This document shows, in pieces, positions 243 through 46,963 of a DNA stretch of 64,000 nucleotides. The translations under genes and the position numbers were made by a program. Origin of the DNA: Phycisphaerales bacterium (GTDB lineage: Bacteria > Planctomycetota > UBA1135 > UBA2386); contig JADCJE010000032.1 in NCBI GenBank assembly GCA_020247305.1, positions 88,108-152,107 of the forward strand, read 5' to 3'. Within the stretch, counting starts at the first letter, position 1, and the number at the start of each line of letters is the position of its first letter. A model generated the notes under the pieces. It did not search any database, was not told the origin of the DNA, and was given only the letters and a program-made list of their open reading frames with translations.

Positions 243-881
243 ATGGAACGCCACGTCCGTGCCGCCGCGCGCGGCTTCACGCTGATCGAGCTGCTGATCG
301 TGATCTCGATCCTCGGCGTCCTGGCGGCCGTGCTGCTGCCGCAGGTCTTCGGCGCCAACGAAGCGGCGAACGCCGCCGCCACCGAGACCAACCTGCAGAT
401 GCTCGAAGGCGGCATCCAGCGCTTCCAGCGCAAGCACGGCATCTATCCGCCGGACGACCTGAAGGCGCCCGAGGGCATCGCCAAGGCGACCTGGAAGGGC
501 GACAATGGCGTCAACACCGGCATCGAGTCGCTGGTCTGCTTCCTCAGCCAGTCACAGCAGGACGGCCTCGACCTGGCGAGCCTCGCCGACCGCTTCGCCA
601 ACACGGACGGCGACGACCATGGCGTCGAGCTGCCGCTGCTCAAGCGCCGCGACCGCCTGGAGATCACCGACCACTGGCAGACGCCGATCGCATACTTCGG
701 CAAGTTCGGCCTCGAACGCGCGCAGGTGGTCAAGCCCGACCCCGAGTCCGACACCGTGCAGGTGAAGACGCGGCGGCGGCCCGATGGCGTGGTCTACGGG
801 GCCGGCAAGTTCCAACTGCTCAGCGCCGGGCCGGACCGGACGTTCAACACCGACGACGACCTCGTCTGGCCAGCCAACTGA
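243..881 (+). CDS. gspG: T2SS major pseudopilin GspG-like, with an internal insertion (212 aa)
   Basis: Prepilin signal AARG|FTLIELLIVISILGVLAAV with Glu+5. C-terminal GspG-like stretch DHWQTPIAYF...FQLLSAGPDRTFNTDDDLVW. Confidence 0.8.
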   Translation: MERHVRAAARGFTLIELLIVISILGVLAAVLLPQVFGANEAANAAATETNLQMLEGGIQRFQRKHGIYPPDDLKAPEGIAKATWKGDNGVNTGIESLVCFLSQSQQDGLDLASLADRFANTDGDDHGVELPLLKRRDRLEITDHWQTPIAYFGKFGLERAQVVKPDPESDTVQVKTRRRPDGVVYGAGKFQLLSAGPDRTFNTDDDLVWPAN

Positions 882-890
882 CCATCCGCG

Positions 891-1820
891 ATGCGCCGCG
901 CCGCCGGATTCACGCTGTTCGAACTGCTGGTGGTCATCGCCATCCTGTCGGTGCTCACCGGCTTGTCCGTCGGCTTCCTCGGCAAGACCGACCCGACGAT
1001 GGTCGCCAACGCCGTGCTCGGCGGCGAACTGCGCGCCGCGCAGTTGTCGGCGCGGGCCGAAGGCGTGCCGACGGAGGTTCTCTTGCAGCCGGGCACCGAC
1101 GAAGGTCCCGCCACCGTGCAGGCGCGGCTGCTGCGGCCGGTGGTCTCGTTCCGCTTCGAGCCGAATCAGGCCTACGAGGACGATTCGCTGCGACCGGTCC
1201 TCGGCGGCGAGGACGCCGCCGACGGGCGCTTCGGGCACGCGCGCCGGGTCGCTCCCGGCGGCAAGGGCGCCGTCGTGCGCTGGACGCCGACCGCGGCGCT
1301 GCTCGACCTGCGCGACGGCTTCGTCGTGCGCTTCGACCTGCTGCTCGACTCGGCCGGACCGGCGACCCTGCTGCGCTTGCCGCCGGCAATCGAGCTGACG
1401 CTCGACGCCGACGGCCGCCTGCGCGCACGGTTGCGCGTGGCGGGACTCGGTGGTGGCGACAACCGGCTCGTTCCGGTCGCGTCCTCTCAGCCGCTGCCGC
1501 GCGGACGGTGGTGCACGGTCGACCTCGGCTGCGACACCCGGCGCTGCTGGCTCGCGGTCGACGGCAGGGATGTCGGTGACGCCGTGTGCGACGGCGTGCC
1601 GCAGCAGGAAGACGACGCCACCTTCGAGTTCGCGCCGGCGGACGCGGCGTTCACGGGTCTCGTCGACGAACTGCGGTGGTTCGTCTACCAGTTCGGCTCG
1701 CCGCAGCAGCTGCCGATCGAGTGCGAGGCGCCGAAGGCGCTGCGCTTCTCGTTCGACGCGCGCGGCGAGGCGGTGGAACGGCACGCCGTGGCGTTCACGG
1801 TGCGGGAGGACGGCAAGTGA
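891..1820 (+). CDS. Prepilin-type N-terminal methylation-domain protein with a LamG/concanavalin-like C-terminal domain (minor pseudopilin)
   Basis: RRAAG|FTLFELLVVIAILSVL leader. C-terminal part resembles Laminin_G_3 (RGRWCTVDLGCD..CWLAVDGRDVG). Stop overlaps the next start (GTGA). Confidence 0.7.
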   Translation: MRRAAGFTLFELLVVIAILSVLTGLSVGFLGKTDPTMVANAVLGGELRAAQLSARAEGVPTEVLLQPGTDEGPATVQARLLRPVVSFRFEPNQAYEDDSLRPVLGGEDAADGRFGHARRVAPGGKGAVVRWTPTAALLDLRDGFVVRFDLLLDSAGPATLLRLPPAIELTLDADGRLRARLRVAGLGGGDNRLVPVASSQPLPRGRWCTVDLGCDTRRCWLAVDGRDVGDAVCDGVPQQEDDATFEFAPADAAFTGLVDELRWFVYQFGSPQQLPIECEAPKALRFSFDARGEAVERHAVAFTVREDGK

Positions 1821-4800
1821 GGATCGCCACCTGCGACCGCTCGGCGGGCGTGGCGCTGCTCGCCGTGCTCTTCGCGTTGACGTTGCTGATGCTGTTGGCG
1901 CTGCCGTTCGCGGTGTCGATGTCCGTCGGCGCCGACGCCGCCGTGCGCGAGGTCGAGGAGACGAGCGTCGTGCAGGCCGCCGCGAGCGCGCGCGAGCTGC
2001 TGCTGGCGGACGCGGCGTTGTCGCACCCGGCGATCGATCCGACGCCGATGTCCGACGGCCTCGAGGAGTTCCCCCAGGCGGTCGAACTGCCGAAGGCCTT
2101 CCAGGCGCTCGGCGAAGACGGTCGCGTCGTCTTCGGCGGCGGCGTCACCGACCTGCAGCGCCTGTTCGCGTTGGACGGCGCCTCGCCGCTGCTGTTCGCC
2201 AACGTGCTCGGTTCGACCACGCGGTTGCGCGAAGAGCTGCTGCCCGACGCGAACGAGATCGCCGTCGACGCCGCGGACGAGCTGCCGCCGACCGGCATGG
2301 TCTTCGTCGGCGGCGAACTGATCCGGTACGGCGCGCGCACGGCCAACGCGCTGCAGCAGCTCGAACGCGCGGTCGACGCGCCGGAGTTCGGCGACGGGCG
2401 CGAGCCGATTCCGGCCCAGTCGCTGGTGCTCGACTGGCGCTGCATCCAGGCCGCCAACTGGCCGAACCAGGGCTCGGATCCGACGCGGCGCACGCGCCAG
2501 CCGTTCCAGTCGGTCGGCGACCTGCTGGCCATCGAGCGCGCCGGGGCCGGCCCGTTCACGCCGGCGGAGATGGACCTTCTGCGCGCCAGCTTCACCACCG
2601 ACACGCAGGCGACGAGCGCGCCGACGTGGGGTCGTCCCGAGCGCGTCTTCGGCGCGCTGGTCGCTGGGGAATCGCGCCAGCTGATCGTCAAGTCGGCCTT
2701 GCACCTCGGCCCGGGCAGCACGGTCCGACTGCGCAACCTGCGCACCGGCGCGGTCGAACACGGCCTCGTCGTCGGCACGGCGACGGCCACCGGTCAGCAG
2801 GCCGTGCAGTTGCCGAGCACGTTCCTGCTGAACCTGCTGCACCGCGTGCTGCAGGACTTCCCGGCCGTCGACACCGTCGTCGAGCCGTTGATCCCGGCGC
2901 CGATCAACGTCAACACGGCGAGCGTCGAAGCCCTGACGGCGGTGTTCGCGCAACTGCGGCAGCCGCCGGTGGTACGACAGACGGAGTCGGGCGTGCAGCG
3001 TTCGACGCCGCCGATCTTCGCGCGCGCCGCCGCGCGGCAACTGGCGGAGGACATTGCCCTGCTGCGCGCCGCGTCGGACCGCCCGGGCACAGGCGCATTC
3101 ACCGGCTGGCAGGACTTTGTCGAGCGACTCTGGCGGCCGCGCCTCGAAGCCGCCGCCGCCCAGGATGACGTCGCGCTGCTGGTCAACATCTACCGCAACC
3201 TGCACACCGGCCGCGACACGGTGCTGGAGATGGGCACGGCGCCGTTCTGCTTCCAGTCAGGACCGTGGATGGCGTACCGCGCCGCCGCCAGCCGCACGCG
3301 CAGCGCGGTGGCGCCGGGTGTCGCCGCGCGCAATGAACGCACGGGCGTCGCGCTGGCCGTGCCGGGGTTCGCCATCGAACGCCGGTGGGCGACGCAGGAG
3401 CAGTTCGAGGACGCCCTGCAGCTCGACCGCCGCTCGCCGTTCTGGGCCACGAATCCCGTCAACCTCGGCGCGATCCAGCCGAACGCGCTGGGCGCCGATC
3501 CGGCGTCGCGGTCGGCGCCACACCTCCTGGCGGCGGCGTTCCCGAACCTGGGGTTTGGCCAGCTGCGCTTCCCGGCGCGCGACGACGTCGCGGCGGGCAT
3601 CCAACCGGCGCCGGCATCGGCCTTGCCCGGCAACTGGAACCGCAGCCCCGTGCTGCGCGTGCAGGAGTCCTTCCCGTTCGCGCAGGACGTACGCGGCCAC
3701 GACGTCAGCAAGCTCGGCGCATTGCGGCTCAACAACACAGGGCCGTCGCAGCCGCAGGGCCAGGGCGGCGCACCGCAGCAGCCGTCGCAGCGGGCGGTCA
3801 CCCAGCAGGGGTCCGGCAGGCACGACCAGATCTCGTTCCCGTTCAGCACGCCGGACAGCTTCCTCGGCAAGTTCGGCCTCGGCGCGTGGCTGGAGCCGCA
3901 GAACCTCGCCGCGGTGACGTTGTTCGAGCACGGCGACGGCAACGACCTGCGCAACCGCCTCGCCGTCGAAGTGCGCGACGGCAACCTGTTGCTCGAGTCG
4001 ATCGACGAAGCCGGCATCGACCCGAACCCGAGCGCGTCGCCGGCCGGCGTGCAGCGCACGGCGACGCAGGTGGTGTTGCCGCTCGCCGAGTTGGCGATGC
4101 CGGCCAACACGCCGCTGCACGTGTCGTTCCAGGCGGCCGGCGGCCGGCCGTCGGACCTCGCTCTGCACGTCGACGGCTTCCCGCGCGGCCGACCTCGCTT
4201 CCAGACGTACCTGACGGCGGCGGTGCCGGTGTTCGACCCGCAGCGCGGCAACAACCAGACGCTTCCGGGCATGGCCGGCAACGAGCGCTACCTCGACCTG
4301 CAGGTCGAGAGCACGGACGGCTTTCCGCCGGTCGGCCTGCTGCGCATCGGCGTCGAGTACTTCGAGTACACCAGCATCCGCGGCAACACGTTCCGCTGCC
4401 AGTTCAACGATTCGATGGGCGGTCGCGCGGCGCGCCAGCGCGGGCGCGAGATGCGGCCGGACATCCCGGTCGACGAGCAGGGCCGGCCGCGCGTCGACAT
4501 CAACAGTCCGGAGTTCGCCAACGTCAACCTCGACGTCTTCCCGGCGCACCCCGCCGGTTCGGTGGTCGAACTCGCCGGCTGGTCGCTGCCGCTCAGCGAG
4601 GACACGCCGATGATGGTCGGCAGGACGGCCCTCGACGGTTCGATCGGCGGTTGGGCGGTGGCGCGCGGGTACATCGACAACCCGCGCCCGATCACCATCC
4701 AGATCCCGATGGGGCCTTCGTTCCCGATCGGCGACGGCATCGACGAGAACTGGAACGGCACGCTGTTGCTCGCCGATCCCGTGCCGACCGGAAGGACCTA

Positions 4801-6997
4801 TCCGCCGCCGGCCGCACAGGAAGAGATCGTCAACGCGTTCCCGGCCACCGGCGGGTACGCGTTGATCGTCCAGGGCCTGCAGCAGTGGGACCGGACCCTG
4901 GCGACGACGTCCGCGTCGGCCACGTTCGGCGGCGTCGAGGTGATCCGGTACGCGGCGCGGCAAGGCAACCAGCTGACCGGGGTGCAGCGGGCGCAATCGG
5001 CGGCGATCCCGGGCCAGGACGGTCAGATCGCCATCGACCAGTTCGACGGCCGCCCGCGCCGGTTCGTCTGCAACTACGTCGACATCGGCCTGCCACAGGA
5101 ACCGGGCAGGACCTTCGACGACCTGCCGACCGAGATCGTCTTCGTGGTGCCGATCTCGCTGCCGGTGGCCAACACGCAGGTGCTGTGGGATCCGCAGGCG
5201 CGGCAGATGACCGAGTTCTGCCAGCTGCTGCCGACGGGCAACGCCGTCGACACCGAGTGGGTGCGCTACGACGTCATCGCCGAGCGTCGCCACATCGTGC
5301 GCGGCAACCGCGCCGCATGGGAAGCGCTGCGGTTCATCCTGACCAACCGCATCGGCGCCGCCCAGATCGACGTCGGCCCGCTTGGACCCAACAGCCAGCC
5401 GTCGGCGACGACGCCGCCTTGGCCCCAGGTCGTGCCGACTTCGGGCTACATCGGGTACGTGCCGCAGATGGAGAGCACGTGGCCGCAGATCCACGCGGCG
5501 CGGCGGGCGCTCGCCTTCCGCGGGGACCCGTTCACCGGCACGTCGTCGCATCCCCAGGCCAGCGCTGCGGTGCTGCCGTGCCACCGCATGCAGCTGTCGT
5601 GGGGCAATTTCGGCGTCTACACCGGACGCGCCGGCCGGCACGACCGCGTGGCGATGGTGCAGGGATCGACGGCCAGCGGCACGCAGCGTCCGCCGGTTGA
5701 ATGGCTGAGCGTCAACTGGGCCTGCCGGCGGTACGAAGCCGACAACCTGCAGCAGGGCCAGACCCCGCCGGAGCGCCTGGGTCCGTGGCCCTTCCAGCTG
5801 GTCGGCTTCACCGACCAGGTCACCAACGTCTACCTCGGACCGCCGCGCGGCACGCCGGTCTTCGAGCCGCGGCGCTTCGACCGGCTCGTCAAGTTCCCGA
5901 GCGGCGAACTGCCGGCGGCGTGGTGCCAGCAGCCCACGCTCGGCGCCGGCATCGGCAACGCGCAGCAGATGCAGGGCTACGTCGATGAGGTCGACCTGGT
6001 CCAGCACGCGCGCCCGACGCTGGTGCTCGACGAAGACTGCGCCGACGGCGCGCAGACCTTCCGGGTCGTGCCGACGATGCTCGTCGCCTCGTCGGGGCCG
6101 GTGTACTTCGCCAACGACATCACCCCGGCGCTGCCGCAGACCGGCGGGCTGGTGCAGATCGGCGGCGAAGTACTCGCCTACCAGACGCATGCCGACGGCA
6201 CCTTCCAGGTGGCGATCAACGGTCGCGGGCTGCTGAACACGCAGCCACGCAGCCACGCGCGAGGCAGCCGCGTGGAGTTCCTGTCGCACCGTTCGGCGGC
6301 GATCCTCGCCAGCGGCCTCGGCATCCGCGACAACACGCTGCCGCTGCAGGACCTCGGCGCCTTGTCGCCGCGCCAGGGCACCGTCCTGGTCGGCACGGAG
6401 TTGCTGCACTACAGCTGGATCCGCCGCAACGGCGACCAGGTGCAGCTGGAGATGCCGCGCCACTTCCCCGGGGAAGACGAGCCCGGTGGCGGCCAGCCGC
6501 GCGGCTTGTTCCGCGGGCGCTTTGGCACGATGCCGGCGACGGCAGGCGCCGGCCAGGCCGTGGTCGGCTTCCCGTTCCGCTACTGGGACCGGCAGGTCGA
6601 GCGCAGCGACGACCCGGAGCTCGCGTACTTCCAGGTGACCCACACCGAAGCGCCGGGCTTCTTCAAGTCGCTGCGCTGGCGGCAGGAGACGCTGGATCCG
6701 CGCGTCGACGTGGTCTGCCTCGCCCGCGTCGACGGCAAGCTGCCGTGGGAAGGCGCGCCGCTGCCGGCGGGCGGCTTCTGGGAGCTGCGCGGCGGCAGCG
6801 CTGACGCTCCGCCTCACCGCCTGATGCACCACGGCAGCCAGCTGGAGCTGCGCTTCCTCACGCGGTACCAGCCCGGCTGCGTCGATCTGGTGACCTACCG
6901 GGCGCATGGCTGGAAGACGACGGCGCGCATCGAGGACGTGCGTGTCGAGTACGAAGGCCAGTCGCGGGTGCTCGTCGAGGAGGTGACGGCGCGATGA
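1817..6997 (+). CDS. Giant GspK-like pseudopilin-family protein (~1726 aa)
   Basis: GTG at 1817 overlaps the upstream stop (GTGA). N-terminus RSAGVALLAVLFALTLLMLLALPF is GspK-like (hydrophobic helix, no Glu+5). PINVNTASVEALTAV helix-hairpin-helix signature at 2900-2941. High GC3 in this frame. Stop overlaps the next ATG (ATGA). Confidence 0.7.
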   Translation: MRIATCDRSAGVALLAVLFALTLLMLLALPFAVSMSVGADAAVREVEETSVVQAAASARELLLADAALSHPAIDPTPMSDGLEEFPQAVELPKAFQALGEDGRVVFGGGVTDLQRLFALDGASPLLFANVLGSTTRLREELLPDANEIAVDAADELPPTGMVFVGGELIRYGARTANALQQLERAVDAPEFGDGREPIPAQSLVLDWRCIQAANWPNQGSDPTRRTRQPFQSVGDLLAIERAGAGPFTPAEMDLLRASFTTDTQATSAPTWGRPERVFGALVAGESRQLIVKSALHLGPGSTVRLRNLRTGAVEHGLVVGTATATGQQAVQLPSTFLLNLLHRVLQDFPAVDTVVEPLIPAPINVNTASVEALTAVFAQLRQPPVVRQTESGVQRSTPPIFARAAARQLAEDIALLRAASDRPGTGAFTGWQDFVERLWRPRLEAAAAQDDVALLVNIYRNLHTGRDTVLEMGTAPFCFQSGPWMAYRAAASRTRSAVAPGVAARNERTGVALAVPGFAIERRWATQEQFEDALQLDRRSPFWATNPVNLGAIQPNALGADPASRSAPHLLAAAFPNLGFGQLRFPARDDVAAGIQPAPASALPGNWNRSPVLRVQESFPFAQDVRGHDVSKLGALRLNNTGPSQPQGQGGAPQQPSQRAVTQQGSGRHDQISFPFSTPDSFLGKFGLGAWLEPQNLAAVTLFEHGDGNDLRNRLAVEVRDGNLLLESIDEAGIDPNPSASPAGVQRTATQVVLPLAELAMPANTPLHVSFQAAGGRPSDLALHVDGFPRGRPRFQTYLTAAVPVFDPQRGNNQTLPGMAGNERYLDLQVESTDGFPPVGLLRIGVEYFEYTSIRGNTFRCQFNDSMGGRAARQRGREMRPDIPVDEQGRPRVDINSPEFANVNLDVFPAHPAGSVVELAGWSLPLSEDTPMMVGRTALDGSIGGWAVARGYIDNPRPITIQIPMGPSFPIGDGIDENWNGTLLLADPVPTGRTYPPPAAQEEIVNAFPATGGYALIVQGLQQWDRTLATTSASATFGGVEVIRYAARQGNQLTGVQRAQSAAIPGQDGQIAIDQFDGRPRRFVCNYVDIGLPQEPGRTFDDLPTEIVFVVPISLPVANTQVLWDPQARQMTEFCQLLPTGNAVDTEWVRYDVIAERRHIVRGNRAAWEALRFILTNRIGAAQIDVGPLGPNSQPSATTPPWPQVVPTSGYIGYVPQMESTWPQIHAARRALAFRGDPFTGTSSHPQASAAVLPCHRMQLSWGNFGVYTGRAGRHDRVAMVQGSTASGTQRPPVEWLSVNWACRRYEADNLQQGQTPPERLGPWPFQLVGFTDQVTNVYLGPPRGTPVFEPRRFDRLVKFPSGELPAAWCQQPTLGAGIGNAQQMQGYVDEVDLVQHARPTLVLDEDCADGAQTFRVVPTMLVASSGPVYFANDITPALPQTGGLVQIGGEVLAYQTHADGTFQVAINGRGLLNTQPRSHARGSRVEFLSHRSAAILASGLGIRDNTLPLQDLGALSPRQGTVLVGTELLHYSWIRRNGDQVQLEMPRHFPGEDEPGGGQPRGLFRGRFGTMPATAGAGQAVVGFPFRYWDRQVERSDDPELAYFQVTHTEAPGFFKSLRWRQETLDPRVDVVCLARVDGKLPWEGAPLPAGGFWELRGGSADAPPHRLMHHGSQLELRFLTRYQPGCVDLVTYRAHGWKTTARIEDVRVEYEGQSRVLVEEVTAR

Positions 6998-8199
6998 ATG
7001 TTCCTCTGCGAGCCCCTGCCGCCGGCTTCACGCTGATCGAACTGTTGGTGGTCATGGGCATCCTCACGGGCTTCCTGCTGATGCTGGCCCAACTCGTCGA
7101 TGGCGGCTTGCGGCTGTTCGGCGAGGGCGAACTCGGCCAGGCGTTGGCCGATCGGGCGAGCACGGCGCAGCGGCGGGTGACGGCCGAACTGTCGTTGCTG
7201 CGCGGCGCCGGCAGCCAGCGCGACGCCGCCCAGGTCGTCGACCGGCTCGTCGTGCAGGAACTGCCGCTCGGCCTGCCGCAGCGGCCCGAACGCGGCATCA
7301 GCAAGGGGCAGGTGCTGCGCGGCGCGGTCCGCCTGCCGCCCGATCGCGAACTGCCGCTGCTCGACGCCAAGATCGCGGCGGAACTGCTGCGCGACGATCC
7401 CAAGCTGACCGGCGAGGAACTCGACAAGCGCATCCGCGCCGCGCGCCAGGGCATGCCGCTGCGCGGCCACGGCAACCTGCTGCTGCTGCCGTGGCGCCAG
7501 GAAGGCAGCGACGAAGCCCTGCTCGAACTGCGCGCCGCGTGGCTGTTGCCGGGGCAGATCGTCCCGGTCGGCCCGGATCGCTTCGTCGACCCGTTCGATG
7601 TGCCGCTGCCGGGATCCCCGGACCTGCCGGGCCTCGCGGCCTGGACGCTGACGCAGCCGCTCGTCAGCGACCTCTTGCACGTGGAGTTCCAGTTGTGGGC
7701 GCAGGACACGCGCCAGTGGGCGCGCGACGACGGTCGCACGGGCGGGGGCGTCGCACTGCGCTGCTGGGACAGCGCCCGCGGCGGGTGGTTGGTCGACGCG
7801 GCGGCGGGGGGCGCGTTCCCGTTCGATCGCGGACCGGCCAGCGCCGCGGACGCGCGCGACGACGTCCACCCGCACGCGCTGCTCTGCCGGATCGTCGTGG
7901 CGCAACCGGCGGAGTACGCGCCCGAGGGCCTGCTCGCCGCCGACCTCGCCGTCGACGACACCGTCCTGCGCCTCTACGACGGCGATCGTTTCCCCGGTCC
8001 GGCCGATGGCGGTTGGTTGAAGATCCGCACGGAGTGGATCGCCTACGCCGAGCGCAGCGGTGACGAGTTGCGCGGCCTGCGGCGCGGCCTGCGCAACACG
8101 AGCGCCAAGGACCATGTCTCCGGCGCGCGTGTCCACGTCGGCCGCAGCGTCGAGTTCGTCGTGCCGGTGTTGCACGCGAAGGACGACTGGAATGGCTGA
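6994..8199 (+). CDS. Prepilin-type minor pseudopilin (GspJ-like position), 401 aa
   Basis: APAAG|FTLIELLVVMGILTGF leader. ATGA overlap with the upstream gene. C-terminal motif is shared with the giant protein. Confidence 0.7.
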   Translation: MNVPLRAPAAGFTLIELLVVMGILTGFLLMLAQLVDGGLRLFGEGELGQALADRASTAQRRVTAELSLLRGAGSQRDAAQVVDRLVVQELPLGLPQRPERGISKGQVLRGAVRLPPDRELPLLDAKIAAELLRDDPKLTGEELDKRIRAARQGMPLRGHGNLLLLPWRQEGSDEALLELRAAWLLPGQIVPVGPDRFVDPFDVPLPGSPDLPGLAAWTLTQPLVSDLLHVEFQLWAQDTRQWARDDGRTGGGVALRCWDSARGGWLVDAAAGGAFPFDRGPASAADARDDVHPHALLCRIVVAQPAEYAPEGLLAADLAVDDTVLRLYDGDRFPGPADGGWLKIRTEWIAYAERSGDELRGLRRGLRNTSAKDHVSGARVHVGRSVEFVVPVLHAKDDWNG

Positions 8200-8662
8200 C
8201 CCACGACGCAACGAAGCCGGCTTCACGCTCGCCGAGATGCTCGTGGCGCTCGGCATCCTGTTGTTCGGCGTGACGTCGCTGCTGGCGGCGATGGCGAGCA
8301 GCATCGGCCAACGCCGCAGTTCGGACGCGCGCCTGGAGACCACGGCGCTCGTGGAGCACGTCGTCCACCGTGCGATGCACGAGTGCGTCGCGCTGCGCGA
8401 CGGCAGTTCCTCGCCGGTCGACCTGGAGTTCCGCCCGCTCGTCGACCAGCCCTGGCCGGGGTTCCCCGGCCTGCGGTGGTCGGTGCGCGCGACGGTCGAC
8501 GAGAACCGCCCGACGGTGTGGCTGCTCCGCATCGAAGCCAAGTGGTTCGACGGCGGCGAGGAGATCGTTTCGGAGTACCTTCGGGTCGTGCCGCGGCAGG
8601 CGCCGCTGCGCGACCGGGTGTTGACCGCCCGCGGCGGGGCGGCGGAGACTACGGACAGGTGA
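8192..8662 (+). CDS. Prepilin-type minor pseudopilin (GspI-like), 156 aa
   Basis: ATG at 8192 lies 8 nt inside the upstream gene. RNEAG|FTLAEMLVALGILLFGV leader. Small size typical of GspI/H. Confidence 0.65.
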   Translation: MADPRRNEAGFTLAEMLVALGILLFGVTSLLAAMASSIGQRRSSDARLETTALVEHVVHRAMHECVALRDGSSSPVDLEFRPLVDQPWPGFPGLRWSVRATVDENRPTVWLLRIEAKWFDGGEEIVSEYLRVVPRQAPLRDRVLTARGGAAETTDR

Positions 8663-8667
8663 CGGCC

Positions 8668-10170
8668 ATGAATCGCATGATGCTCGCGTTCCTCCTCCTC
8701 GCCGCGGCGTTCCCGGCGGCCCTGGCGGCCCAGTCGGTGCAGCTCGCGGATGGCCGCGTCCTGCTGGCCGAGGTCGAGACCGGCAGCGTCACCGGCGAGG
8801 GTATGCGCGTCCGCCGGCTCGACAACGGCGGCGTCCTCGACCTGCGCTGGGACCACCTGACGCCCGCGAGCGCGATGGAGTGGAAGAAACGCTTCGACCT
8901 CGCGGGCGACGCGCAGGACGAGATCACCGTGCGCGCCGACGAGGTCACGTACGAGATCGGCGGCACGCGGCGCTCGGTCCTGGGCCGCATCGTCGACCAG
9001 ACCACCGACAGCGTCGTCGTCCAGCAGAAGGGCGTGCCGAGCACGATCAAGCGGCGCGACGTCGTCGGCGTGCGCAAGGTCGACGCGCCGGTCACGCAGG
9101 TGATGACGCGCGAGGAGTACTACGGCGAACTGCTGCAGCAGGCGCAGCCCGGCGCCGACGCCGACAAGCACCTGCTGGTCGCCGAGACCCTGATGAAGGT
9201 GCGCGACTACGACCGGGCCATCGAGCACGTCGAGAAGGCCAAGGCGGCCGGCAACAGCAAGAACCCGCCGCAGATCGACGCCATGCTCGGCAAGCTGCAG
9301 CGCTACAAGGAGGCGCAGAAGGAACTGAAGCTGCTGGAGGACATCCAGGCCGCTCGCAGCCGCGGCGGCGTCGCCGACTTCGAAAAGGGCGGCAAGCTGA
9401 TCGCGCAGTTCGAGAAGGATTTCCCGCAGACGAAGCTCAAGAGCGAGTTCGACGCCGAGAAGCGCCGGTTCGCCGAGGCGCGCACGCGCTTCCTGACCGG
9501 TCAGGTGGCCGAGAAGTTCCGCGACGGCGTGCGCGTGGTCGCCGACAAGGCCTGCGGCGACGCGGCGATGACGCTGCAGGCGGCGCGCGACTTCGCGACC
9601 GCCAAGATGAGCGACGAGATCTTCGCGCGCGTGGCGCAGCAACTCCGCCTGGACGTCGCCGAGGTCAAGACGCTCTGGGCCGCCCGCAAGGACAACTCCA
9701 TCGGCCGCCGCGTCGAGCACTACGGCTACGCGGTCGGCTCGTGGGTGCTCGGCGAGCAGGCCATCCTGAAGGACACGACCCAGGGCAAGGCCAACGCGGC
9801 GCAGAAGGCACGCGCCGGCGACAGCCCGGCCGCGGCGGGCGGCAACCCGCAACTGGATCGGCTGGCCAAGCTGCTGCGGCAGGCACAGGAGCGGCGGAAT
9901 GCCCAGCAGTCGCAGGGCGGCCAGGAGCGCGAGCAGACGGACGAGGACTGGTGGCGCGAGGCCGAGCGCGTCGACCGAGCCGGGTTTCTGCGCGCGTACT
10001 ACGCCGAATTCGGCGGCCAGATGGTCGTCACCTTCGCGACGGTCTCGCCGTGCATCAGCTGCAGCGGGGAAGGCACGGTGCCGGAGCTCGGCGGCGACGG
10101 TCGCATCGTGAGCAACAAGTGCTTCCTGTGCCACGGCACCAAGTGGCTGCGCAGCTTCAAGGCGTACTGA
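8668..10170 (+). CDS. Secreted TPR-like/coiled-coil protein with a C-terminal DnaJ-type CxxCxGxG zinc finger
   Basis: Signal peptide MNRMMLAFLLLAAAFPAALAAQS. CISCSGEG...CFLCHGTKW at 10051-10146. Only a 5-nt gap after the pseudopilin gene. Confidence 0.65.
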   Translation: MNRMMLAFLLLAAAFPAALAAQSVQLADGRVLLAEVETGSVTGEGMRVRRLDNGGVLDLRWDHLTPASAMEWKKRFDLAGDAQDEITVRADEVTYEIGGTRRSVLGRIVDQTTDSVVVQQKGVPSTIKRRDVVGVRKVDAPVTQVMTREEYYGELLQQAQPGADADKHLLVAETLMKVRDYDRAIEHVEKAKAAGNSKNPPQIDAMLGKLQRYKEAQKELKLLEDIQAARSRGGVADFEKGGKLIAQFEKDFPQTKLKSEFDAEKRRFAEARTRFLTGQVAEKFRDGVRVVADKACGDAAMTLQAARDFATAKMSDEIFARVAQQLRLDVAEVKTLWAARKDNSIGRRVEHYGYAVGSWVLGEQAILKDTTQGKANAAQKARAGDSPAAAGGNPQLDRLAKLLRQAQERRNAQQSQGGQEREQTDEDWWREAERVDRAGFLRAYYAEFGGQMVVTFATVSPCISCSGEGTVPELGGDGRIVSNKCFLCHGTKWLRSFKAY

Positions 10171-10175
10171 ACGCC

Positions 10176-11270
10176 GTGACTCGATCCTCGTTGCCAGGCC
10201 TGCTGGCCGGCACGAGCGTCCGGTCGGCGAGGCACAGTGCTGCCCCGGCTCGTATCGCCGGGTTGCTCGCGGCCGTTGCTGTGGTCGCGGCATGCAGCGG
10301 GCCACCCCGGGCGCCAACTGGGGCGATCCCGAGCCAGCCGAAGTCGGCCGCGTCGCCGCCGCCGAAGCTGGCGCCCGTGACCCCGCCGCGCGTCGACCCC
10401 AAGCTCGGACCGGACGTGCTGTTGCCCGCGCCGGCGGGCGGTGACGATGAAGTCGCGCGGGTCGGCGATCTGGTGCTGCGCCGCAGCCATGCCTTCGCGC
10501 GTCTGCTGACGGCCAGCCCCAAGATGGCGCTCTCCGCCGTCGACCTGCTCGTCTTCGACGCCCTGGTCGCACGGCACGCGCGTGAGTTCGGCATCCAGGT
10601 GGCGACGGCCAGGGTCGACGAACTGGCGGCGGCAGAGGAAACGACGCTGCGCCAGCAGTTGGCCGAGGAGCAACAGGGGCAGGTGGACTTCTCGGCGTAC
10701 CTCTTCCGGGTGTTCGGCATGGCCGAAGACGACTGGCGGCAGACGCTGCGGCTGCGCACGGCGCAGCGGCTGTACCAAGGGTACGTCCTGCGCTACCTGG
10801 CCTTGCGCGAGGATCGCGCCCAAGTCCGGTTCCTGGTGCACGCTGACCAGGTTCTGTGCCGGGAGGTCGCGACGAAGGTCCGCGCCGGAGCCGACTTCGC
10901 GACCCTGGCCAACAAGCACTCCGAGGATCCGTCGCGGCGGGACGGCGGTCTGCTGCCGCCGTTCGGGCGGGAGTTCCAGCACCCGGTTGCCAAGGTCGCA
11001 TTCGAGCTCGACCGCGGGGGCGTGAGCGAGCCGTTCGAGGCGGCTTGGGGCGATGGCAAACGGTGGTTCGTCGTGTTCTGCCTCGACCGCATGCCGGGGC
11101 GCGACGTGCCGTTCGACGCCGTCGCCGCCGAGATCGACGCCGGTCTCGCCGCTCGTCCGATCACGCCGCTCGAGACCACCGCGTACACGCTGCGCTGGCG
11201 CACCGGTCTCGATGGCGACCGGGACGCCGGCCAGACCGTCGGTCCTTCGCCGGCGCCGCAGTCGCGGTAG
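10176..11270 (+). CDS. PpiC/parvulin-type peptidyl-prolyl isomerase lipoprotein (SurA/PrsA-like)
   Basis: Lipobox-like AVVAAC|SG. Parvulin stretch ADFATLANKHSEDPSRRDGGLLPPFGR..VSEPFEAAWG..FVVFCLD. The start (GTG 10176) is uncertain. Confidence 0.65.
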   Translation: MTRSSLPGLLAGTSVRSARHSAAPARIAGLLAAVAVVAACSGPPRAPTGAIPSQPKSAASPPPKLAPVTPPRVDPKLGPDVLLPAPAGGDDEVARVGDLVLRRSHAFARLLTASPKMALSAVDLLVFDALVARHAREFGIQVATARVDELAAAEETTLRQQLAEEQQGQVDFSAYLFRVFGMAEDDWRQTLRLRTAQRLYQGYVLRYLALREDRAQVRFLVHADQVLCREVATKVRAGADFATLANKHSEDPSRRDGGLLPPFGREFQHPVAKVAFELDRGGVSEPFEAAWGDGKRWFVVFCLDRMPGRDVPFDAVAAEIDAGLAARPITPLETTAYTLRWRTGLDGDRDAGQTVGPSPAPQSR

Positions 11271-22454: not shown

Positions 22455-25400
22455 TCACCGAAGATTTCGATAGACCGAAATCGAGTGATCCGGCTCGATG
22501 ACCCAGAGTTCATCGGCGTTGGCAAGCACCCTTGCCTTCTTGCTGCCTTCGAGACGGTATTGCACCTCGCCCGTCTCCTGCGAGTGAACCATCGGCCCCG
22601 TCGCGGAGGGGACGACCAGGCGTTGGCCGTGGCGCACGACGGCGCCAACGTGCTCGCCCTCGGTAGCCTGCGTAGCTGCGACCTTGGCGCCGCTCGAACG
22701 CTGCAGTTTGGTCAACCCGGAGCGCAGGGCCTGCCAGACGTGGTCGCCGACCACGATCGGCGTGCCCAGCGGTTCGCCGCCCAGCTCGACGTCCCAGTTG
22801 GTCGCGCCGGAAGCGAGGCCGATCGAGGCCAGCCGACCGCGGTCTGTGCACACGATCAGGTCGCCAGCGTCCTGGACGAAGCCCAAGACCTCGGCGTCGC
22901 CGATGCGTCGGTCGAGCGTCCGCTTGCCGTCGGCCGCGTGGCGACGCAGTTGCCCCTTGCCGCTCAGCGTCGTGACGCCGCCGTCCGCGTCGGTCCAGAA
23001 GCCGGCGATCGAATCGTCAGCGGTGAACCGCCGCTGCACCTTGCCGTCGTCACCGAGGAACACGACCGCCCCGGACGTGGTGGCGGCGACTAGCCCACCG
23101 GCGACCGACTTGGGAGCAAGGTCCATCGGCAGATCGGCCGCCGTCCACGCGATGGCTCCAGTTGCCAGGTCTACGGCACGCAGGTCGCCATCGACGGAAC
23201 CGATGATGGCGCGCGAACCGACGATGACGGGGCGCGTCAGGAAGCCGGAGAGATCCTCCGTCCGTCGGCTCCACAACGGCACGCCGTCCTTGCCCATCAT
23301 GGCAACCGTGCCGGCGCGATCCACCACGAGGACGCCCGCGGCGGTCGCGACTGGCGGCATCTCCACGGCGCTGGCGAGCTTGCGCGCCGACTCCGGTTGC
23401 AACCGCAGGTCGAACGAGAGCACTGCCTTGTCGTCGCCGGACACCGAGACTTTCGCGCCGGCGAAGCCGGCGAGTTCCACCCGGACCTCCGAAGTGTTTG
23501 CCGGGCTGCGCTGCAACAGGACCGGCGTGACGCCGGCGTCCGCGCCATCGAGCCGCACACGGGCGCCGAGCGGCCGCGTCGCGATCCGCAAAGGCAGGCG
23601 GACGATCCGTTCGAATCCGATCTCCGGGAACGTGTCGCACAGCGAACGCATGTGCCTCTTCGCCGTGTCGAAGTCGCCCGCCTTGCTCGCCGCCACCTGC
23701 TGATCGAGCAGTTCGGTGATCGCGCGGAGTCTGGCGATGCGTTCGCGGAAGTGCTTCAACAGCGAGTTGTCGGCCGACGAGTGCTGTTCGAGCTCGCTGT
23801 AGTCGGCGAGCGCGCCGACGAAGTCGTTGGCAGCCTCGCGCTGGACTGCGCGCTGGAACAGCGGGTCGAGGCGCCGCTGCTGTTCGTTGCGGGCCATCGC
23901 CGCGCCGTACGCGGCTGTCAGCGTCTCCGCCTTGCGGAAGGACTCGCGCATCGCCCCCTCGCTCTGGGCGAGGTGCTTCTGCAGATCGGCCGGCAAGTAG
24001 GCGATCTCCTCCTTGCCGGCGACGACCGCCTCGAACTCCTTGAACGCCTGGATCCACGCTACGTCTACGGTCTTCGCCAGCTTCGCTTGCGCGGCGACGA
24101 GGTCGTTGCGGTCGATGAGCTGTTCGGGCAGCGGCAAGGTCTGCTGTTGGAGGTTCCGGGCGATGTCGCCGAGTCGGACGGTAAAGGCCCGCAGCCGGCG
24201 ATCCGCGGCTTCGATCGTGGCGACCCGACGGTCCTCCGCCGCGGCGAGACGTTGATAGACCTTGACCGCTTCGTCGACCTTGCCGCCTTCGAGCGCCTCG
24301 GCCGCGCGCGCAAGTTCGGCGACCAGCTCTTCGTTGCGTTGCTTGTGGCGCCGGGACGACTCCTGCGCCTTTGCGAACGAGAGTTGCGTCCGGAGGTCGG
24401 TGATGCCGTCGACGTCGCCGAGTTGCGCGGTCCATTCGGCGAGGCGGCTCACCGCGTCGTCGAATTGGCGCTTGGCGATCAGCTGCCCGACCTCCGCGCG
24501 CGCTTCCTCGAGACTCTGCAGGTCGGCGAAGTGGCTCCAGAACCACATGCCGACGCCGATGGTGCCGAGCCCGAGGGCGGCGGCGATGCCGACGCGGGCG
24601 ATGCGCGCTCCCCGTGTCCGCGTGCGCTGCTTCAGCAGCTTGGCGATGTCCTTGCGGTTGCGGTCGAGGCGCAGCAGATGCGCGTAGGCGCTGTTGGCCT
24701 GGCTGGTCTCTCCCAGGGCGTCGTGGTGCTCGGCGAGCTCCTTGAGCACGGCCACGGCGCCGGGGATGTCCTTGGCCTTCTGGCGGGCGCGCGCCTCGCG
24801 TAGCAGGATCGCCGGCCGCATCGTGTGCGTCCGCCTCGCGTCCTCGACGATCTCGAGGGCGGTGCCAGTGCGTCCTTCCGTGGTCAGGGCATCGAGCAGT
24901 TCGAGCGTGCACTTCTCCAGCTCGGGCGAGTCCGCCGGGCTGTGTACGAGCAGGATCGTGCGCAGGTAGCTGAGCGTGCTGACGTCATGCGGATCGAGTT
25001 CCTTGGCGCGACGCGCCATGTGGAGCGAGGTCTCGCCGTCTTCCTGACGCTGTGCCGCCTCCAGCAGCATCGCGCTGGCGATCTTCCGCTCGCCGGCGAC
25101 GTCGAGGCATTCCGCTGCCGCACGGACGACGTCGACCGAGCGGTCGTCCGGCCGCGCGATCAACGTGCGAATGGTCATCAGCGCGCGCTTGCCGTTGCCG
25201 CCGTCGGCGAGCCGCTGGGCGACGGCCACGAGCCCCTCGTCGTCGGGGTTGCGCAGCCATCCCGCCTTCACGAGATCGCGTGCGGCCCTCGCGCCGGCGA
25301 ACATGCCCGTCGCGCAGCGCTCCGTGAGTTCGCGGTAGCTGGTGTGCCCGTCGACGCCCCGCAGCAGCTCGGCTCGTGCCGCATCCAGCCCCGTGCCGTC

Positions 25401-26051
25401 CATGGTCTCGCGCGTCCGCTGCGGCACCTCGTCGAGCGACCCGATGGCGGCCAGGATCGTCTCCCACTCGTCCGACCGCCGGGCGACCTCCAGCAGGAGG
25501 CTGTTGATGTCGTACTCGAAGCAGCTGTCGAACAGCTTGGCGGTGTCCGCCTGCGGGGCGCCCTTCCACAATTCGAACGCGCCGTGGCGCCAAGTGAAGA
25601 GGGCGTAGACGTCTTCTGCCGCCTGCTCCTCCAGCAACGCCTCGATGTGGTCGTGGGTGCAGTGCCCGCCTTCCACGAGCAGGACGCCCAGCGGGCGCTT
25701 GTCCTTGCGCTGCTCGATGAGCACGGCGCGCAGGGTCTCGATCGTGACGACGCCGGCGTTGACGAGGCGTTGGCCGATGCGCCGCGCCAGGACGCGCTGC
25801 GGCACGTGCACGCGGATGCGGCCGTCCTTGCAGTAGACGTGGCGGTCCTCGAGGGGGTTGCGGATCCGCATCGTCCCCTCCATCTTCGTGGTCGCGAGCG
25901 TCTGCAGCACATCCGCCAGGTGGATCTGCTCCAGGTCGCCCTGCATCATCACCGTCTGCGGTTCGGCCTCCGCAGGGGCTTGCTCGTTCGACGCCTCGGC
26001 GAGGAGGAAGTCGACCTCTGCATCACTCAGGACTTCGGAACGTGGCGCCAT
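22455..26051 (-). CDS. Large single-pass membrane protein: DUF4388, MshEN (T2SSE_N)-like, TPR, TM helix, coiled coil, PEGA, PQQ-like beta-propeller
   Basis: QGDLEQIHLADVLQTL (DUF4388-like). Tandem MshEN motifs at 25623-25781. TM IARVGIAAALGLGTIGVGMWFW at 24537-24602. PEGA-like ARVRLDGADAGVTPVLL. Repeated LRAVDLATGAIAW-type blades. The start may instead be the internal MMQ at about 25949. Confidence 0.8.
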   Translation of the reverse strand: MAPRSEVLSDAEVDFLLAEASNEQAPAEAEPQTVMMQGDLEQIHLADVLQTLATTKMEGTMRIRNPLEDRHVYCKDGRIRVHVPQRVLARRIGQRLVNAGVVTIETLRAVLIEQRKDKRPLGVLLVEGGHCTHDHIEALLEEQAAEDVYALFTWRHGAFELWKGAPQADTAKLFDSCFEYDINSLLLEVARRSDEWETILAAIGSLDEVPQRTRETMDGTGLDAARAELLRGVDGHTSYRELTERCATGMFAGARAARDLVKAGWLRNPDDEGLVAVAQRLADGGNGKRALMTIRTLIARPDDRSVDVVRAAAECLDVAGERKIASAMLLEAAQRQEDGETSLHMARRAKELDPHDVSTLSYLRTILLVHSPADSPELEKCTLELLDALTTEGRTGTALEIVEDARRTHTMRPAILLREARARQKAKDIPGAVAVLKELAEHHDALGETSQANSAYAHLLRLDRNRKDIAKLLKQRTRTRGARIARVGIAAALGLGTIGVGMWFWSHFADLQSLEEARAEVGQLIAKRQFDDAVSRLAEWTAQLGDVDGITDLRTQLSFAKAQESSRRHKQRNEELVAELARAAEALEGGKVDEAVKVYQRLAAAEDRRVATIEAADRRLRAFTVRLGDIARNLQQQTLPLPEQLIDRNDLVAAQAKLAKTVDVAWIQAFKEFEAVVAGKEEIAYLPADLQKHLAQSEGAMRESFRKAETLTAAYGAAMARNEQQRRLDPLFQRAVQREAANDFVGALADYSELEQHSSADNSLLKHFRERIARLRAITELLDQQVAASKAGDFDTAKRHMRSLCDTFPEIGFERIVRLPLRIATRPLGARVRLDGADAGVTPVLLQRSPANTSEVRVELAGFAGAKVSVSGDDKAVLSFDLRLQPESARKLASAVEMPPVATAAGVLVVDRAGTVAMMGKDGVPLWSRRTEDLSGFLTRPVIVGSRAIIGSVDGDLRAVDLATGAIAWTAADLPMDLAPKSVAGGLVAATTSGAVVFLGDDGKVQRRFTADDSIAGFWTDADGGVTTLSGKGQLRRHAADGKRTLDRRIGDAEVLGFVQDAGDLIVCTDRGRLASIGLASGATNWDVELGGEPLGTPIVVGDHVWQALRSGLTKLQRSSGAKVAATQATEGEHVGAVVRHGQRLVVPSATGPMVHSQETGEVQYRLEGSKKARVLANADELWVIEPDHSISVYRNLR

Positions 26052-30200: not shown

Positions 30201-30343
30201 ATGGCATCGCACCTTACCGGCGGCGGCCGGCGTGAGGGAAGCCCGCATTGGGACAACGAGCCGCCGCTGATGAAGGGGGTGTCGGGGGGGCGTCGATCCG
30301 GCTGCTGCATCGCGTCCGCCCAGGGGTGCGTGCCCAAGCAACC

Positions 30344-36881: not shown

Positions 36882-37598
36882 TCAGCCCGGCCCCGGCTGC
36901 TGGTTGAGGCGCACGGCGACCACGCTGAGCAGGTCATTGACCTGCTTCTCGATGCGGTTCACGTTCGCGACGTTGTCGAGCACGATCGCCTTCTTCGCCG
37001 TCGCCGGCTGGAAGATCAGCCGGCCGCTGCGCAGCAGCAGGAACTCGACGACGTCGTAGATCTCCTTGTTCATCTCCAACCCCTCGGTCGACCAGCGCTG
37101 GATGTCGCCGAGGTAGCCGTGATGGTGCAGGATCTCGCGCGCGTTGACCTCGTAGTAGTTGAAGCGTGTGTTGACGAACACGAGGGCGAGCAGGAAGCCG
37201 AGGCCCGCCGACAGGAAGCCGTAGAACGCCGTGTTCATCCGGACGTCGATCGCGCCGAACATGCGGCCGAGGAAGCCGGTGACGTTCGTCTTGGTGTCGC
37301 CCCAGAGGATCAGCAGCATCACCGCGATGCCCGCGATCAGGATCGTGATGGTCTTGATGCGCGAGAAGTCGAACGAGAACACCAGCAGGTTCAGCAACAG
37401 CGCCAGCATGAACGTGTTGCCGAGGAACGGCGAGCCGATGTCGCCACTGCCCTTGCCGACGCCGAGCCACGACATCAGGAAGAACACCGTCGCGCAGCAG
37501 AAGGTCGGGTAGAGGAACACGACCTTCGGCCAGGGCCGGATGATCACGCTCTCCGGCGCGCGGGGTGCCGTCAGGGGGACGTTCGCGGTCTCGGTCAT
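36882..37598 (-). CDS. Membrane protein with a C-terminal bacterial PH-like (YdbT/DUF304-like) domain
   Basis: ATG at 37598. About 4 TM segments, then YEVNAREILHHHGYLGD...GRLIFQP...IVLDNVANV. Confidence 0.55.
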   Translation of the reverse strand: MTETANVPLTAPRAPESVIIRPWPKVVFLYPTFCCATVFFLMSWLGVGKGSGDIGSPFLGNTFMLALLLNLLVFSFDFSRIKTITILIAGIAVMLLILWGDTKTNVTGFLGRMFGAIDVRMNTAFYGFLSAGLGFLLALVFVNTRFNYYEVNAREILHHHGYLGDIQRWSTEGLEMNKEIYDVVEFLLLRSGRLIFQPATAKKAIVLDNVANVNRIEKQVNDLLSVVAVRLNQQPGPG

Positions 37599-37632
37599 GG
37601 GCAGGGCTCGGCGGGCTGGGCGCCGCCGCCGG

Positions 37633-40491
<2,859 letters not shown>

Positions 40492-46200: not shown

Positions 46201-46963
46201 CCTGGCCCGGCCGGATGCCGCCGAGCACCTCCGGCGTCAGCGCCCAACTGGCGTGCAGCGCGCGGTTGGTCAGCAGGTAGCAGTCGAGCGCGCCATCGCC
46301 GTCGTAGTCGGCGAAGGCGGCCATCATCGAAGCGGCAGCGACGTCGAGACCGAACTTGGCGGCGTTCTCGCGGAAGGTGCCGTCGCCCTGGTTCTCGTAC
46401 AGCAGGTTCTTGGCTTCGAGGTTGCAGACGTGCAGGTCGAGGTCGCCGTCGCCGTCGAGGTCGATGAAGCAAGCGCCAGTGCCCCAGGCATCGCCGCCAT
46501 CGACACCGCCCGCGGCGACCGTGACGTCGGTGAAGCGCAGCGGCGCATCCTGGCGGAACAGTCGGTTGGGCCCGTCCTGCGACACGAAGTACAGATCGAG
46601 ATCGCCGTCGCCGTCGTAGTCGCCGGTCGCGAGTCCGGCGCCGTTCGTCAGGTACGAGTAAGCGTTCTCGCGGCGCAACACGTTGGTGAAGGCAACGCCC
46701 GTCTGCACCGGGTCGAGCAAACGAAAGCGCGGGCCGTCGCCGCGCGGCGCCCTGGCCGCGTGCGGCGCGCTCGCGAGCGGCGGCAGTTCGGTGGCGCGCT
46801 GGCAGCCCGCCAGCGCCGCGAGGGCGACAAGGCTGGCCAGGGCAGTCGGGGGAAGCTGGCGGCTGGGAGGGCGGAGCACGCGGTGGGACCTAGGCCGCAA
46901 GGTGGCGGGGGTGGCGCGAAAACGCCAGCGAACGTGCAACCGACGGTCGGGTGCGGGCCACAT
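43226..46963 (-). CDS. CRTAC1-like FG-GAP/VCBS repeat protein with two ASPIC/UnbV modules (lipoprotein)
   Basis: Many [10 protein letters not shown] calcium-loop repeats. Two UnbV-like segments ([20 protein letters not shown]...; [17 protein letters not shown]...). LAALAGC lipobox. Confidence 0.85.

Follow-up and report, generated by a model that had tools for sequence, protein, structure and literature searches.

A 1726-residue GspK-like protein of uncultured Planctomycetota as a candidate cap pilin fused to a very large tip adhesin

We analysed a 64,000-nucleotide stretch of DNA from a Phycisphaerales bacterium (assembly GCA_020247305.1, contig JADCJE010000032.1, positions 88,108 to 152,107 of the forward strand; hereafter, the window) and, within it, a gene at positions 1817..6997 (+) that encodes a protein of 1726 residues, hereafter the giant. 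GspK is a small protein that caps secretion pseudopili, and the GspK/PilX class caps type IV filaments. A sequence-only reading of the window had proposed that the giant is a GspK-like pseudopilus tip subunit of unusual size. We find that uncultured Planctomycetota do encode this protein at its full 1726 residues, and that the N-terminal part of the giant is supported by profile comparisons as a distant homologue of GspK.

In the list of open reading frames, the frame spans 1586..6997 (+), and a GTG at 1817 gives 1726 residues plus a stop. The start at 1817 is preferred over 1586 because it is preceded, 7 nucleotides upstream, by a GGAGGA Shine-Dalgarno sequence, overlaps the stop of the preceding gene by GTGA, and yields a protein identical to a deposited NCBI entry of 1726 residues (P0001, named "hypothetical protein"). 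A start at 1586 was rejected, given that it would overlap the upstream gene out of frame and that both the orthologues and the NCBI model begin at the equivalent of 1817. The continuous frame and the identical deposited protein bear out the single gene of approximately 1726 codons that had been called at 1817-6997. At its 3' end, the gene overlaps the next pilin gene by ATGA (6994-6997), behind a GAGGAGG motif, so that 4-nucleotide overlaps couple its translation to that of the pseudopilin genes before and after it. Its G+C content is even, at 70-75%, with no break in composition, and reaches 0.91 at third codon positions (GC3).

A first homologue search retrieved 109 proteins at 37-93% identity, all of which are unnamed or "hypothetical" and none of which carries a precomputed Pfam domain. 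The sequence-only reading had proposed a search for orthologues of equal length, and more than 100 were found, the complete ones comprising 1712-1775 residues. Relatives were detected in 120 genomes in a scan of species-representative genomes, all of them metagenome-assembled genomes of uncultured Planctomycetota, with the same length kept. Complete chromosomes with a family member include OZ245838.1 and OZ245006.1. Column conservation is even along the 1726 residues, with a sole dip at residues 601-700. Because the same length recurs in more than 100 orthologues and 120 genomes, and conservation is even, a frameshift or assembly chimera inside 1817-6997, which the earlier reading had named as a possible flaw, is excluded. 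An exhaustive hidden Markov model search with a profile of the C-terminal extension returned 751 cluster representatives (50% identity) at E ≤ 1e-3, of which 334 had E ≤ 1e-30. Complete members of this superfamily have 1570-1850 residues (maximum 2042), and the extension match always reaches the C-terminus. Among the distant members, all 80 of the 80 parsable N-termini are of the GspK type, without a glutamate at position +5 (Glu5). The source names are "hypothetical protein", with one cluster named "pseudopilin PulG". A third homologue search, with the superfamily profile, recovered the same close family again and no named or cultured organisms, and we found no description of the family or its cassette in the literature searched.

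In one metagenomic contig (L087:3478-8747), the orthologue P0225 is split into open reading frames of 699 and 1069 residues. Because their 40-nucleotide overlap sits at the low-complexity linker, the split is read as a sequencing frameshift, which it probably is, though it is placed at a module boundary. Such split forms were rejected as evidence for separate pilin and adhesin genes acting in trans, as a second truncated protein (P0218) is a contig-edge fragment and the split of P0225 is most simply a frameshift.

The GspK-like module comprises residue 1 to a putative end near residue 520 (1817..3376) and, by hhalign and the AlphaFold2 (AF2) model, is predicted to comprise a pilin fold and an α-domain with two inserted β-barrels (approximately residues 135-206 and 275-358). 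It opens with a class III (prepilin-type) leader, residues 1-11 (1817..1849), which ends at the invariant Gly11 and is predicted to be cleaved there (SAG↓VALLA, the arrow marking the cleavage position, with Gly at -1 and no Glu at +5). The N-terminal stretch previously noted to lack Glu+5, RSAGVALLAVLFALTLLMLLALPF, corresponds to residues 8-31 (nucleotides 1838-1909), and position +5 after Gly11 is indeed Ala. G11, A13 and L14 are invariant in the family, and the N-terminus aligns with RG↓VALL of GspK. The leader is followed by the pilin α1 helix, residues 12-67 (1850..2017; AF2 helix at residues 8-67), the N-terminal half of which is hydrophobic and which has no Glu at +5. The first β-strand motif, DLQRLFALD (2150..2176; AF2 strand at residues 104-112), is aligned by hhalign with its GspK counterpart D-x-Q-x-x-F-N-L-N, and the superfamily consensus at this motif is V-D-Q-RI-LNSASP. 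Further along, the α-domain contains the helix-hairpin-helix element PINVNTASVEALTAV (2900..2944), which is hit by sub-threshold matches to Pfam T2SSK and HHH_3. This element had been singled out before and is present at residues 362-376, although it ends at nucleotide 2944 and not at 2941; around it, P360, P362, N364, N366, T367 and A368 are invariant. The AF2 model of residues 1-660, with a mean predicted local distance difference test score (pLDDT) of 80.9 and a predicted template modelling score (pTM) of 0.80, shows, in the same sequence as in GspK, a 60-residue α1 helix followed by a strand, then helices that include the helix-hairpin-helix element, and lastly a β-hairpin at the C-terminal end. 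Because the module carries the two inserted barrels, it is placed as far as residue ~520, which leaves an extension of about 1200 residues; the large extension of the earlier reading thus stands, at a size somewhat below the ~1300 residues estimated there.

As references for GspK/XcpX, we used PDB entries 3CI0 and 5VTM, Pfam families PF21687 and PF03934, NCBIfam model NF037980, and a set of 73 genuine GspK proteins, all with PF21687. The latter have 286-393 residues, in agreement with the 300-350 residues that the sequence-only reading gave for GspK, and the giant is five times larger. Comparison of the close family with the 73 GspK proteins by hhalign gave a probability of 95.7% (E = 1e-8) over residues 1-124, with two more collinear blocks in the α-domain; in a greedy alignment, GspK 1-341 corresponds to residues 1-524, with two large insertions. 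When the profile was built from a superfamily alignment of 23 sequences (24-41% identity), the probability was 98.3% (E = 1.4e-14), with 251 collinear columns. With the hydrophobic helix deleted on both sides, hhalign gave 88.5%, a match that also supports the helix-hairpin-helix element, with scores of 53.6 and 40.7, whereas 15 column-shuffled controls did not exceed 18.5. Among single E. coli pseudopilins, GspK gave the highest score with the N-terminus of the giant (37.0), followed by GspI (27.1) and GspG/H/J (~19). When the superfamily members were scanned singly, 21 of the 23 matched NCBIfam GspK (best E = 7e-13; all below cut-off) and 11 of the 23 matched Pfam T2SSK. The sole match of the family profile among all PDB sequences was GspK/XcpX (5VTM_X), with a marginal E = 0.13, at the PINVNTASVEALTAV region. 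The giant shares with GspK/XcpX the class III N-terminus without Glu5 and the first-strand D-x-Q motif, the α-domain elements sELr.i.G.t and then P-x-N-V-N-T-A (helix-hairpin-helix) in the same order, and a gene position among GspG/H/I-like pilins. Taken together, these comparisons support the first ~520 residues of the giant as a distant homologue of GspK, outside the curated GspK families, and the label "GspK-like" is upheld in the sense of remote homology only.

Downstream of the module lies a disordered, poorly conserved Pro/Gln/Gly-rich linker, residues 604-668 (3626..3820), with pLDDT < 50 and the conservation minimum of the protein; the Pro/Gln-rich stretch pointed out earlier, NNTGPSQPQGQGGAPQQPSQ, falls within it at residues 639-658 (nucleotides 3731-3790). 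The AF2 model of residues 661-1726 (pLDDT 86.6, pTM 0.82) is nearly all-β. The first LamG/concanavalin A (ConA)-like β-sandwich of the extension is predicted at approximately residues 680-800 (3854..4216), from Foldseek matches and from Pfam Laminin_G_3, which matches 10 of the 23 relatives at the equivalent of approximately residues 680-820 (best E = 5.5e-9). Foldseek searches of the PDB with the extension retrieved neurexin LNS2-6 (E = 2.6e-5), laminin LG, botulinum Hc and sialidase CBM40 domains, with local probabilities of 0.96-1.00. Near residues ~1575-1600, the Pfam family Rcc01698_C, a domain of a Rhodobacter gene transfer agent tail protein, matches 9 of the 23 relatives, and in a viral structure library the extension has 35 matches at E ≤ 1e-3, mostly to tail fibres, tail or baseplate proteins, tip-attachment protein J and LamG proteins.

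The recurring short motif reported by the sequence-only reading was found in six copies in the giant, at residues 167, 847, 1041, 1147, 1451 and 1528, at least five of which are homologous by hhalign, and it marks a small β-barrel. Copy 1 (Glu167; 2279..2392) lies within the GspK-like module and locally matches tailspike and depolymerase barrels in Foldseek (probability ~1.0); it aligns by hhalign with copy 2 (Glu847; 4319..4432) at 94.9%, with copy 3 (Glu1041; 4901..5014) at 96.6% and with copy 5 (Glu1451; 6131..6244) at 88%, the last of which also matches the "tail protein" family PHROG 1101 (E = 9e-6). Copy 6 (Glu1528; 6362..6475) aligns with copy 2 at 82%, and copy 4 (Glu1147; 5219..5332), the most divergent, is assigned by its motif match, with weak hhalign probabilities (≤ 7.8%). 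The models thus depict an extension made of LamG/ConA-like sandwiches and five copies of a phage-tail-like β-barrel repeat. The protein ends in a conserved decapeptide, RVLVEEVTAR (6965..6994), a candidate docking β-strand whose R1717, E1721 and R1726 show conservation of 90% or more across the close family; in the isolated model, the last 10 residues have pLDDT < 50. An adhesin, an enzyme or a cargo-docking tip had been suggested for the extension. The searches revealed neither a catalytic family nor a catalytic fold in it, and the sialidase matches fall on CBM40/lectin parts, so that the enzyme reading was rejected; the lectin-type folds fit an adhesin better than an enzyme.

The giant gene belongs to an 11-gene cassette that is shared by relatives at 42-51% identity and by others at 25-28%. 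The order is an FHA protein, a PilM_2-type protein, a protein of ~260 residues, a TPR protein of ~900 residues, two pilins, the giant, two pilins, a secreted protein of ~500 residues and a PpiC/SurA-like protein. The first four of these would lie beyond the left edge of the window and are encoded 0-10 kb upstream of the giant's orthologues in four relatives (contigs L001, L002, L085 and L086), with 645-880 residues for the FHA protein and 540-575 residues for the PilM_2-type protein. In L085, the cassette is preceded by a sigma-54 activator with FHA and GAF domains.

Upstream of the giant in the window, the gene at 243..881 (+) encodes a GspG-like pilin of 212 residues, a candidate major subunit (N_methyl E = 7e-8; TIGR01710 GspG E = 1.7e-13, below cut-off), and the gene at 891..1820 (+) encodes a modular minor pilin of 309 residues with a GspH-like N-terminus and a LamG-like domain (N_methyl E = 3e-7; Laminin_G_3 E = 1.8e-3), with weak matches to GspH and to Verru_Chthon cassette protein D. 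The orthologues of the 309-residue pilin in distant cassettes share the weak LamG signal. Downstream, a minor pilin of 401 residues (6994..8199, +; N_methyl) occupies the GspJ position, from which its putative GspJ role is assigned. Its C-terminus contains a seventh copy of the repeat, GGWLKIRTEWIAYAERSGDELRGLRRG, from nucleotide 8008, where residues 306-380 match PHROG 1101 and PHROG 4406, families of phage tail and virion-structural proteins. With a copy of the repeat on this pilin, the predicted tip complex would therefore bear the phage-tail-like module on two subunits. A small minor pilin of 156 residues (8192..8662, +) is GspI/ComGE-like (ComGE E = 1.7e-6, GspI E = 1.2e-4, both below cut-off; N_methyl). 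The four flanking prepilins carry the canonical G↓FTL.E with Glu5, so that of the five pilins only the giant lacks Glu5, as would be expected if it were the cap subunit. The next gene (8668..10170, +) occurs in every cassette examined and encodes a secreted protein of 500 residues that combines a TPR-like region with a zinc-finger-like motif of the DnaJ type (CxxCxGxG…CxxCxG) at its C-terminus; this gene is followed in conserved synteny by the gene of a PpiC/SurA-like peptidyl-prolyl isomerase chaperone (10182..11270, +; Rotamase E = 4e-9, above cut-off). Both products may serve specifically to fold or assemble the β-rich giant.

We propose, with a probability of roughly 0.65, that the giant is the capping (GspK/PilX-class) minor pilin of a planctomycetal type IV filament machine, in permanent fusion with a very large tip adhesin of its own. 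Under this proposal, a prepilin peptidase would cut the 11-residue leader after Gly11, and the hydrophobic α1 helix would hold the giant in the inner membrane, where the GspK-like module would form a priming or tip complex with the putative partners, the GspI-like pilin (8192-8662) and the pilin in the GspJ position (6994-8199). Because it lacks Glu5, the giant could only be the top-most subunit; below it, the LamG-bearing GspH-like pilin (891-1820) and the GspG-like pilin (243-881) would polymerise. The ~1200-residue extension would thus be displayed at the predicted filament tip, where, judging from its modelled folds, it would probably bind a ligand, most likely a glycan. By analogy with CpaL or PilY1, the C-terminal decapeptide may fold back and dock on the pilin sheet by β-strand addition.

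Several results weigh against this proposal. Pfam models gave no match to the full protein at E ≤ 1, PF21687 (T2SSK_1st) was not detected in the giant, and PF03934 (T2SSK), scanned against residues 1-450, reached 12.6 bits vs. a cut-off of 24.2 (E = 0.19) over 18 residues (363-380). NCBIfam GspK (NF037980, cut-off 130) scored the full protein at 12.2 bits and residues 1-450 at 19.2 bits (E = 7e-4), with an alignment that covers only residues 10-120, so that the giant scores below all curated GspK thresholds. The sequence-only reading had staked its assignment on the T2SSK profile hitting the N-terminal ~350 residues, and the outcome is divided: in the giant itself T2SSK stays sub-threshold and PF21687 is absent, but 21 of the 23 relatives match GspK and the superfamily profile aligns with GspK at 98.3%. 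The AF2 model of residues 1-660 had no significant Foldseek match in the PDB, with GspK outside the top 50, which the two inserted barrels may explain, together with the truncation of the PDB constructs; a scan of the same 660 residues against PHROGs returned nothing useful. The extension matches known folds only domain by domain, and its TM scores are low. The 64-kb window and the 10-kb flanks examined in four relatives contain no secretin, ATPase, platform protein or prepilin peptidase, and a folded tip of ~185 kDa would need passage through an outer-membrane channel.

The difficulty of exporting a tip of this mass is among the points in favour of the best-surviving alternative, that the giant is the periplasmic head of a T2SS-like (type II secretion system-like) exporter, in which a short pseudopilus stays within an enlarged periplasm and the extension serves to dock or push cargo or to block the channel of the outer membrane. 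The N-terminal homology is specifically to GspK of the T2SS, the first cassette pilin is GspG-like, the cassette includes a dedicated periplasmic PpiC/SurA-like chaperone, and PilY1-type proteins have been proposed as plugs (10.64898/2026.02.12.705559). The cassette itself departs from a T2SS, however: its assembly protein is of the PilM_2 type and not GspL/GspM, GspC/D/E/F are likewise not adjacent, and the candidate major pilin, at 212 residues, is larger than a typical GspG (145 residues in E. coli). LamG and phage tail-fibre-type domains are, moreover, typical of extracellular receptor binding, and we regard a periplasmic head as unlikely.

More doubtful is the possibility that the giant acts outside any filament, as a membrane-anchored scaffold with an uncleaved signal-anchor, e.g. 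a static envelope or periplasmic component that forms part of a crateriform-type complex. Such a role would be compatible with the failure to reach the curated GspK models or to retrieve GspK by Foldseek, and the very large TPR and FHA proteins of the cassette suggest a large static assembly. It does not readily account for the GspK-type N-terminus with an invariant Gly where cleavage is predicted, found in 80 of 80 superfamily members, for the translational coupling of the gene among four canonical prepilins, or for collinear GspK homology that reaches beyond the helix. An artefact, whether an assembly chimera, a frameshift-fused reading frame or a prophage tail-fibre gene mis-joined to a pilin gene, is effectively refuted: although the extension resembles phage tail proteins and one relative is split at the linker (699 + 1069 residues), equal architecture and length recur in more than 100 independent assemblies, 120 species-level genomes and 751 clusters, composition is uniform and conservation even, the neighbours are housekeeping genes without phage genes, and the single split fits a sequencing frameshift with a 40-nucleotide overlap in the linker.

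The proposed cap pilin with a fused adhesin can be set beside several known systems. Compared with GspK, besides its size, the giant has two β-barrels inserted in the α-domain and the ~1200-residue C-terminal extension, and its gene stands in the order G-H-K-(J)-I instead of G-H-I-J-K, with none of GspC/D/E/F/L/M adjacent. Large modular minor pilins are an established concept, with GspK counted among them (PMC8179133; for the cyanobacterial PilX, 10.64898/2026.02.12.705559), and the giant resembles S. sanguinis PilB/PilC, Thermus ComZ, cyanobacterial PilX with its inserted β-solenoid and Caulobacter CpaL/TadG (PMC8179133; 10.64898/2026.02.12.705559; PMC13533445) in that a pilin module bears a bulky tip module. 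By the definition of modular type IV pilins of Raynaud et al. (2021, PMC8179133), it belongs to this class, with a pilin module joined to LamG/ConA-like and phage-tail-like modules. A ConA-like lectin module is carried by S. sanguinis PilC, and in cyanobacteria and Thermus the PilX/GspK-class cap is the module carrier. The giant is, however, about twice as large as the largest modular pilin of an InterPro survey (860 residues, PMC8179133); its modules are LamG domains and repeated phage-tail-like barrels, whereas other modular pilins have vWA or β-solenoid modules; and its extra mass follows the pilin module rather than lying between the last two strands as in modular pilins, a placement given by hhalign mapping only.

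Among the large non-pilin tip adhesins of type IVa pili (PilY1/PilC) and mannose-sensitive haemagglutinin (MSHA) pili (MshQ; PMC13533445), the giant has a counterpart to its β-rich adhesin of ~1000-1200 residues. PilY1/PilC and MshQ are encoded beside a PilX/GspK-class pilin and have a conserved extreme C-terminus as a possible docking β-strand, and the giant is similar; docking by a C-terminal β-strand has precedents in CpaL, PilY1 and MshQ (PMC13533445). In the giant, adhesin and cap pilin form one polypeptide (cis), whereas PilY1 and MshQ are separate from their pilins (trans). The PilY1 β-propeller (IPR008707) had no Pfam match in the giant or the 23 relatives, and no propeller was found among the Foldseek matches.

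The giant also resembles phage tail fibre and host-recognition proteins and the Rhodobacter gene transfer agent protein Rcc01698 (PF23666; PHROG 1101) in combining a small β-barrel repeat with LamG-type domains. The similarity is at domain level only, and the giant gene is chromosomal and lacks a phage context, in a pilin operon amid housekeeping genes. Like the giant, Verru_Chthon cassette protein A is a large protein encoded in a four-to-five-gene cassette with prepilin-type proteins in the Planctomycetes-Verrucomicrobia-Chlamydiae (PVC) superphylum. Its model, TIGR02600, weakly matched 7 of the 23 superfamily members (best E = 3.5e-3, far below cut-offs) and had no match to the giant itself even at E ≤ 10; the giant's neighbours weakly match Verru_Chthon cassette proteins D, C and B, in that order and far below cut-offs.

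The giant family thus differs from known modular pilins in size, domain set, cassette and the absence of a database signature. The concept of a large modular minor pilin is already known, and the giant is probably an unstudied, very large adhesive filament tip. GspK/PilX-class cap pilins decide filament priming and first contact, and a fivefold enlargement of the cap implies that an ecologically important phylum possesses a widespread filament system still wholly uncharacterised. If the assignment holds, the giant would be the largest modular pilin described and a natural cis-fusion of cap and tip adhesin, functions that Proteobacteria divide between PilX/GspK and PilY1/MshQ; as such a fusion, it is well suited to testing the β-strand-addition model of tip licensing. 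The combination of lectin-type and phage-tail-type domains provides a molecular candidate for the binding of polysaccharides or surfaces by Planctomycetota, with host-recognition modules common to phage tails and bacterial pili.

Pili-like fibres that bind dextran emanate from the crateriform structures of planctomycetes (Boedeker et al. 2017, PMC5394234). There is a slim chance that the giant superfamily is the tip or recognition component of these polysaccharide-binding fibres. One polypeptide would then combine a GspK/PilX cap with a lectin adhesin of PilY1/MshQ size built of phage-tail-fibre modules; glycans would be caught at the filament tip and drawn by retraction towards the enlarged periplasm, with the C-terminal decapeptide locking the adhesin to the pilin sheet in cis by β-strand addition.

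The rest of the 64-kb window contains housekeeping genes and no phage genes. Three high-GC3 open reading frames have no Pfam match at E ≤ 1e-3, at 30248-33064 (+; 938 residues), 51305-53722 (+; 805 residues) and 36882-37670 (-; 262 residues). Two further genes, with no evident link to the cassette, encode large predicted envelope proteins: one of 1198 residues at 22455-26051 (-), with DUF4388, TPR, PEGA and a PQQ/BamB-like β-propeller, and one of 1245 residues at 43226-46963 (-), with FG-GAP/ASPIC-UnbV repeats.

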